From the sequence record ON036039.1: a DNA stretch of 1,071 nt; one strand, given 5' to 3'. The notes beneath the pieces were generated by a model. That model saw nothing but the letters and a program-made list of their open reading frames with translations. It did not search any database and was not told the origin of the DNA. Source of the DNA: a phage. The translations under genes and the position numbers were made by a program. Positions 1 through 1,071 of the stretch are shown piece after piece; position 1 is the stretch's first letter; each line of letters starts with the position of its first letter.

Positions 1-93
1 ATGCGCCAGGAAACCCGCTTTAAATTTAACGCGTATCTGAGCCGCGTGGCGGAACTGAACGGCATTGATGCGGGCGATGTGAGCAAAAAATTT
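1..93 (+). other. Region encoding the N-terminal segment (aa 1-31) that is proteolytically removed during capsid maturation in P2 (gpN to N*)
   Basis: Established knowledge, recalled: P2 gpN is processed to the mature N* form by loss of about 31 N-terminal residues, a cleavage dependent on the scaffold/protease gpO. In this translation aa 1-31 are MRQETRFKFNAYLSRVAELNGIDAGDVSKKF and the predicted mature N-terminus begins TVEPSV at nt 94. The exact cleavage position is from memory and is not derivable from the sequence. Confidence 0.45.
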
Positions 94-1071
94 ACCGTGG
101 AACCGAGCGTGACCCAGACCCTGATGAACACCATGCAGGAAAGCAGCGATTTTCTGACCCGCATTAACATTGTGCCGGTGAGCGAAATGAAAGGCGAAAA
201 AATTGGCATTGGCGTGACCGGCAGCATTGCGAGCACCACCGATACCGCGGGCGGCACCGAACGCCAGCCGAAAGATTTTAGCAAACTGGCGAGCAACAAA
301 TATGAATGCGATCAGATTAACTTTGATTTTTATATTCGCTATAAAACCCTGGATCTGTGGGCGCGCTATCAGGATTTTCAGCTGCGCATTCGCAACGCGA
401 TTATTAAACGCCAGAGCCTGGATTTTATTATGGCGGGCTTTAACGGCGTGAAACGCGCGGAAACCAGCGATCGCAGCAGCAACCCGATGCTGCAGGATGT
501 GGCGGTGGGCTGGCTGCAGAAATATCGCAACGAAGCGCCGGCGCGCGTGATGAGCAAAGTGACCGATGAAGAAGGCCGCACCACCAGCGAAGTGATTCGC
601 GTGGGCAAAGGCGGCGATTATGCGAGCCTGGATGCGCTGGTGATGGATGCGACCAACAACCTGATTGAACCGTGGTATCAGGAAGATCCGGATCTGGTGG
701 TGATTGTGGGCCGCCAGCTGCTGGCGGATAAATATTTTCCGATTGTGAACAAAGAACAGGATAACAGCGAAATGCTGGCGGCGGATGTGATTATTAGCCA
801 GAAACGCATTGGCAACCTGCCGGCGGTGCGCGTGCCGTATTTTCCGGCGGATGCGATGCTGATTACCAAACTGGAAAACCTGAGCATTTATTATATGGAT
901 GATAGCCATCGCCGCGTGATTGAAGAAAACCCGAAACTGGATCGCGTGGAAAACTATGAAAGCATGAACATTGATTATGTGGTGGAAGATTATGCGGCGG
1001 GCTGCCTGGTGGAAAAAATTAAAGTGGGCGATTTTAGCACCCCGGCGAAAGCGACCGCGGAACCGGGCGCG
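1..1071 (+). CDS. N: Major capsid protein, phage P2 gpN family (HK97-fold); 357 sense codons, stop codon not contained in window
   Basis: Seen in sequence: frame 1 is open from ATG at nt 1 to the last base (357 codons, no in-frame stop), whereas every other frame is broken up. Translation begins MRQETRFKFNAYLSRVAELNGIDAGDVSKKFTVEPSVTQTLMNTMQESSDFLTRINIVPV and ends ...YESMNIDYVVEDYAAGCLVEKIKVGDFSTPAKATAEPGA. Established knowledge / recall: this matches the P2 gpN major capsid protein, which I recall as 357 aa, the same length as this ORF. Identity is from memory, not a search. Gene symbol N follows P2 nomenclature. Confidence 0.9.
   Translation, partial: MRQETRFKFNAYLSRVAELNGIDAGDVSKKFTVEPSVTQTLMNTMQESSDFLTRINIVPVSEMKGEKIGIGVTGSIASTTDTAGGTERQPKDFSKLASNKYECDQINFDFYIRYKTLDLWARYQDFQLRIRNAIIKRQSLDFIMAGFNGVKRAETSDRSSNPMLQDVAVGWLQKYRNEAPARVMSKVTDEEGRTTSEVIRVGKGGDYASLDALVMDATNNLIEPWYQEDPDLVVIVGRQLLADKYFPIVNKEQDNSEMLAADVIISQKRIGNLPAVRVPYFPADAMLITKLENLSIYYMDDSHRRVIEENPKLDRVENYESMNIDYVVEDYAAGCLVEKIKVGDFSTPAKATAEPGA

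Follow-up and report, generated by a model that had tools for sequence, protein, structure and literature searches.

A back-translated reading frame that almost certainly encodes the major capsid protein precursor gpN of phage P2

The DNA considered in the present work, termed here the window (the whole stretch that was analysed, 1,071 nucleotides in length), is occupied from its first to its last letter by one open reading frame. Frame 1 of the plus strand is stop-free throughout, which makes 357 sense codons when translated, beginning with ATG and finishing with GCG (Ala357). The resulting protein starts with the residues MRQETRFKFNAYLSRVAELNG and terminates with STPAKATAEPGA. No stop codon, ribosome-binding site, tag, cloning site or flanking base is present within the 1071 bases, so that the reading frame and the window are one and the same object. 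Its landmarks, and three further open reading frames that a mechanical listing placed out of the main frame, are collected in Table 1.

Table 1. Features of the window, with positions counted from its first nucleotide.
Feature	Position	Strand	Basis
gpN precursor (almost certain), complete CDS without its stop, 357 codons	1..1071	+	Translation; 357/357 identity; PF05125, TIGR01551 and phrog_70 matches
Residues 1-31 (MRQETRFKFNAYLSRVAELNGIDAGDVSKKF), N-terminal segment that the gpO protease would cut off	1..93	+	Residues read; cleavage from PMC7552001
Residues 32-357, putative mature shell-forming gpN, predicted HK97-like fold	94..1071	+	Computed masses; fold from PMC7552001
sir loop, residues 183-224	547..672	+	Residues read; loop definition from PMC7552001
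Off-frame ORF	227-451	+	Mechanical ORF listing; interval stop-free in natural P2 N too
Off-frame ORF	378-608	-	Mechanical ORF listing; interval stop-free in natural P2 N too
Off-frame ORF	678-887	-	Mechanical ORF listing; one stop at the same interval in natural P2 N

The family to which this protein belongs is recognised by every collection of profiles against which it was compared. The Pfam profile PF05125 ('Phage major capsid protein, P2 family') aligns over its full length (positions 1-327 of 327) with residues 8-340, at a score of 504 bits (E = 2.2e-151) for a cut-off of 27 bits, while the NCBIfam equivalog TIGR01551 ('phage major capsid protein, P2 family') yields 315.5 bits, the curated cut-off of this model being set at 219.65 bits. 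The PHROGs family phrog_70, 'major head protein', is matched as well (E = 6.7e-177). Among the sequences of solved structures, the chain 7jw1_A of the PDB ('Major capsid protein gpN') is identical to the protein of the window at 357 of 357 positions (E = 9.6e-239), and this value, together with that obtained with Pfam, places the match to the capsid family far beyond chance. When 50,697 phage records were searched by tblastn, gene N of P2 (AF063097, NC_001895, 4080-5150) came out as 100% identical across the entire length, as did gene N of phage PhiD252, whose record is partial; all the other phages listed in this search reach at most 99.7% identity. The original prediction had seen in the frame-1 ORF a P2-family major capsid protein, gpN, and anticipated that the major capsid protein of P2 would come as top match in a full-length alignment: the profiles and the search agree with both statements. 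We may conclude that the window almost certainly encodes, at full length and in precursor form, the major capsid protein gpN of Escherichia coli phage P2 (Peduovirus P2). There is no residue-level difference from P2 gpN over the 357 positions, and what we have at hand is this already known protein itself, not a relative. In terms of discovery nothing is new: this phage coat protein is a textbook case, and its structure has been solved.

The nucleotide sequence tells a quite different tale. Exactly one codon stands for each amino acid, hence 20 distinct codons over 357 positions, when the natural N gene of P2, compared directly with the window, uses 52. The two sequences share 83.1% of their nucleotides while their proteins are 100% identical: 159 of the 357 codons differ, all of them synonymously, and 152 of the 181 nucleotide mismatches sit at third codon positions. 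Immediately after codon 357, the natural gene carries TAA (NC_001895 5151-5153), which the window omits. Twenty codons for twenty amino acids, associated with 83.1% identity in nucleotides and 100% in residues, establish that the DNA of the window is a computer back-translation, in which a given amino acid always receives the same codon, as had been surmised beforehand from the letters. It follows that the protein is the only informative part of the molecule: off-frame ORFs, repeat, base composition and RNA structure carry no biology. Indeed, when the window itself was used as a DNA query against the phage collection, the best match was only 84% identical, which means that this exact DNA is not natural and that DNA similarity cannot assign its provenance. 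The phages pro483 and PhiD252 come out tied in first place by DNA identity, and a ranking of P2 relatives of this kind is meaningless. A scan of both strands of the window with Rfam found no family at its gathering score, as expected for synthetic coding DNA. A search for repeats retained a direct repeat of 19 nt in two copies (274-292 and 1030-1048, 84% identical); we rejected it as a DNA element, since it merely writes the peptides DFSKLA and DFSTPA in fixed codons and is an artefact of back-translation. The window may be labelled with certainty, and its DNA-level features are to be ignored, its nucleotide sequence being artificial.

Could this spelling nevertheless be that of an object meant for the bench, namely a synthetic gene with genuine codon optimisation for the expression of gpN, and not the outcome of a mechanical back-translation? 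A single codon per amino acid is used throughout the window, and the codons retained, such as CTG, GCG, CGC, AAA and GAA, rank as the most frequent in E. coli, so that the sequence does resemble a naive 'optimisation'. Yet so rigid a codon choice is what one typically gets from back-translation programs, not from practical gene design; the window spans the ATG to the last sense codon and is devoid of stop, ribosome-binding site, tag and cloning site; and the plasmids in use for expression of gpN, pJRC49 and pCMR22, were made from the natural N gene (PMC7552001). The idea is, accordingly, very improbable, and back-translation by a fixed table remains our reading of the DNA. Even less credence, in fact next to none, can be granted to the view that one of the off-frame ORFs forms an additional gene overlapping N. 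In natural P2 N, too, no stop occurs over two of the three intervals, at NC_001895 4306-4530 (+) for the one at 227-451 and 4457-4687 (-) for the one at 378-608, and it is this absence of stops over some 75 codons that would make the sole support for a real overlapping gene inside N in P2-like phages, a proposal to which we likewise give hardly any weight. Against it, what lies off frame in a synthetic DNA simply stems from the codon table; the three ORFs span no more than 69-76 amino acids, are rich in arginine, alanine and serine, and are of low complexity; the record of P2 has no overlapping gene annotated there; and the third of them (678-887, minus strand) is interrupted in natural P2. 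The stop-free off-frame intervals probably arose by chance in a gene of moderately high GC content.

The one alternative that deserves some attention, while still unlikely, bears on the source of the protein and not on its nature: the sequence might have been taken from a P2-type prophage or from a sibling isolate, PhiD252 or a prophage of the E. coli chromosome for example, carrying an identical gpN allele, with the same function. Because synonymous sites were erased by back-translation, provenance rests on the protein alone, and identical alleles do exist elsewhere. The N product of PhiD252 is 100% identical to the protein of the window, an N gene 100% identical to that of P2 in its nucleotides is found on three complete E. 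coli chromosomes, and 1,520 of the 5,426 complete E. coli genomes possess a P2-N-like gene. Most close relatives, however, are at least one residue off: the other phages listed stay at or below 99.7%, and 1,501 E. coli records are located between 95 and 99% nucleotide identity to P2 N. Furthermore, the protein of the window is exactly that of the P2 deposit, and the one on which PDB 7JW1 is based. We keep P2 as the preferred source.

Having settled on the P2 protein, we can read its sequence in the light of the structural work performed with it. The fold of gpN is of the HK97 type, with an N-arm, an E-loop, a P-domain with its spine helix and an A-domain (Kizziah et al., Viruses 2020, PMC7552001), and the identity at 357 of 357 residues with the solved 7jw1_A is what allows one to apply this published fold to the protein of the window, which would thus be HK97-like. 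Residues 1-14 form helix alpha0, which was recognised in the density by R6, F9 and Y12 and which, inside the procapsid, occupies the trimeric interfaces and grips the neighbouring subunit (PMC7552001). All three residues are present in the window protein. So are the residues of the cleavage site, SKKF31/T32VEPS, which are conserved in phages Wphi and 186. From the translation, we calculate a mass of 40.2 kDa for the precursor, falling to 36.7 kDa once only residues 32-357 are counted. Further downstream is the surface of gpN contacted by Sid, a protein of the satellite P4, known as the sir loop, with mutations at M184, D206, Y207, A217 and L221 making gpN unresponsive to Sid (PMC7552001). The window protein is wild type at all five of these loci, and D189, E190 and E191 are present in it too. 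Taken at face value, these residues predict that the window encodes a wild-type, Sid-responsive gpN precursor.

What such a precursor does in the life of the phage is well documented. The gpN pentamers and hexamers adopt a T=7 dextro lattice, in association with gpO, the internal scaffold, and with a dodecamer of the gpQ portal; the N-terminal protease domain of gpO cleaves gpN between residues 31 and 32, an event thought to trigger expansion of the capsid (PMC7552001). When P4 comes into play, 60 copies of Sid build an external dodecahedral cage, which touches a single one among the four quasi-equivalent subunits of gpN, imposing a T=4 organisation (PMC7552001). Transposed to the protein of the window, for which fold, assembly, cleavage and redirection by Sid are inferred from the literature on an identical protein, the scenario would be as follows. 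Pentamers and hexamers would co-assemble with the gpO scaffold/protease and the gpQ portal into a T=7 procapsid; the protease domain of gpO would then trim residues 1-31, which may trigger expansion of the shell as the gpM/gpP terminase packages DNA; and, were P4 present, the Sid cage would bind the sir loop and drive formation of a smaller T=4 shell, fitting the P4 genome. The gpN protein of P2 is the classic substrate of what has been named "molecular piracy", where the Sid protein of P4 shrinks the capsid of its helper from T=7 to T=4.

The natural counterpart of the window is found in a gene neighbourhood consistent across records. In P2, N (4080-5153, NC_001895/AF063097) belongs to the late O operon, where it comes directly after O, coding for the head scaffolding protein and protease (3167-4021), and directly before M, coding for the small terminase (5157-5900). 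The gene of the portal, Q, and that of the large terminase, P, are annotated upstream in the P2 record and divergently transcribed. The record of Wphi displays the same gene order as P2, Q-P-O-N-M-L, and that of 186 a homologous one, V-T-R, matching O-N-M of P2. In passing, we observed that the RefSeq entry of 186 (NC_001317) contains at 1215-1961 a separate CDS, labelled 'terminase large subunit', assigned to gene W and annotated as 'similar to Orf12', in the interval that separates the gene of the portal from that of the full-length large terminase, an odd addition when compared with P2 and Wphi. Another annotation caught our attention in ON470606.1 (Escherichia phage vB_EcoM-720R8): at 18342-19402, on the minus strand, the capsid match is broken into three tblastn pieces, with 96.1% identity, and underlies two annotated 'major capsid protein' features, a situation that points to an N gene that is frameshifted or split, or else to a sequencing error. 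As for the bacterial hosts, P2-N-like genes occur in E. coli genomes with a median of one copy and up to three (NZ_CP010145.1, 1518166-1519239, provides an example), and five such places in complete E. coli genomes are on plasmids.

It remains to situate the protein among its known relatives. The original prediction held that P2 could not be told apart from 186, PSP3 or Wphi. This stands for the DNA, and fails for the protein, where 357 of 357 residues are identical to P2 gpN (NP_046760.1; PDB 7JW1 chain A), which agrees with the product of the window in its length, N-terminal segment of 31 residues, sir loop and C-terminal tail. The gpN of Wphi (NP_878202.1), of the same length and family, is the nearest of the three phages that had been put on a par with P2, being identical at 351 of the 357 positions; the alignment reveals six substitutions, I130V, F142L, K151R, P162Q, R193H and K251R, and hence the window is not the Wphi allele. 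With gpT of 186 (NP_052253.1; 266 of 349 residues, or 76%) and gpN of Salmonella phage PSP3 (75.9%), we are considerably further away. Comparison of these identities designates the protein of the window, as judged from its residues, as the P2 allele itself or that of an indistinguishable P2-type prophage. The 186 and PSP3 proteins are nonetheless built to the same plan as P2 gpN: they are members of the same family, encoded by a gene that follows the scaffold gene, and they keep both the N-terminus MRQETRFKFNAYL and the cleavage region DVSKKF/TVEPS, while they depart from P2 gpN in the region of the sir loop and in the C-terminal tail, which have diverged. The next relative of known structure, chain A of PDB 7OZ4 ('p2 family phage major capsid protein'), aligns over residues 1-341 (E = 9.7e-122); it is clearly a different protein, of 339 amino acids, with a five-residue gap and many substitutions at the region equivalent to the sir loop.
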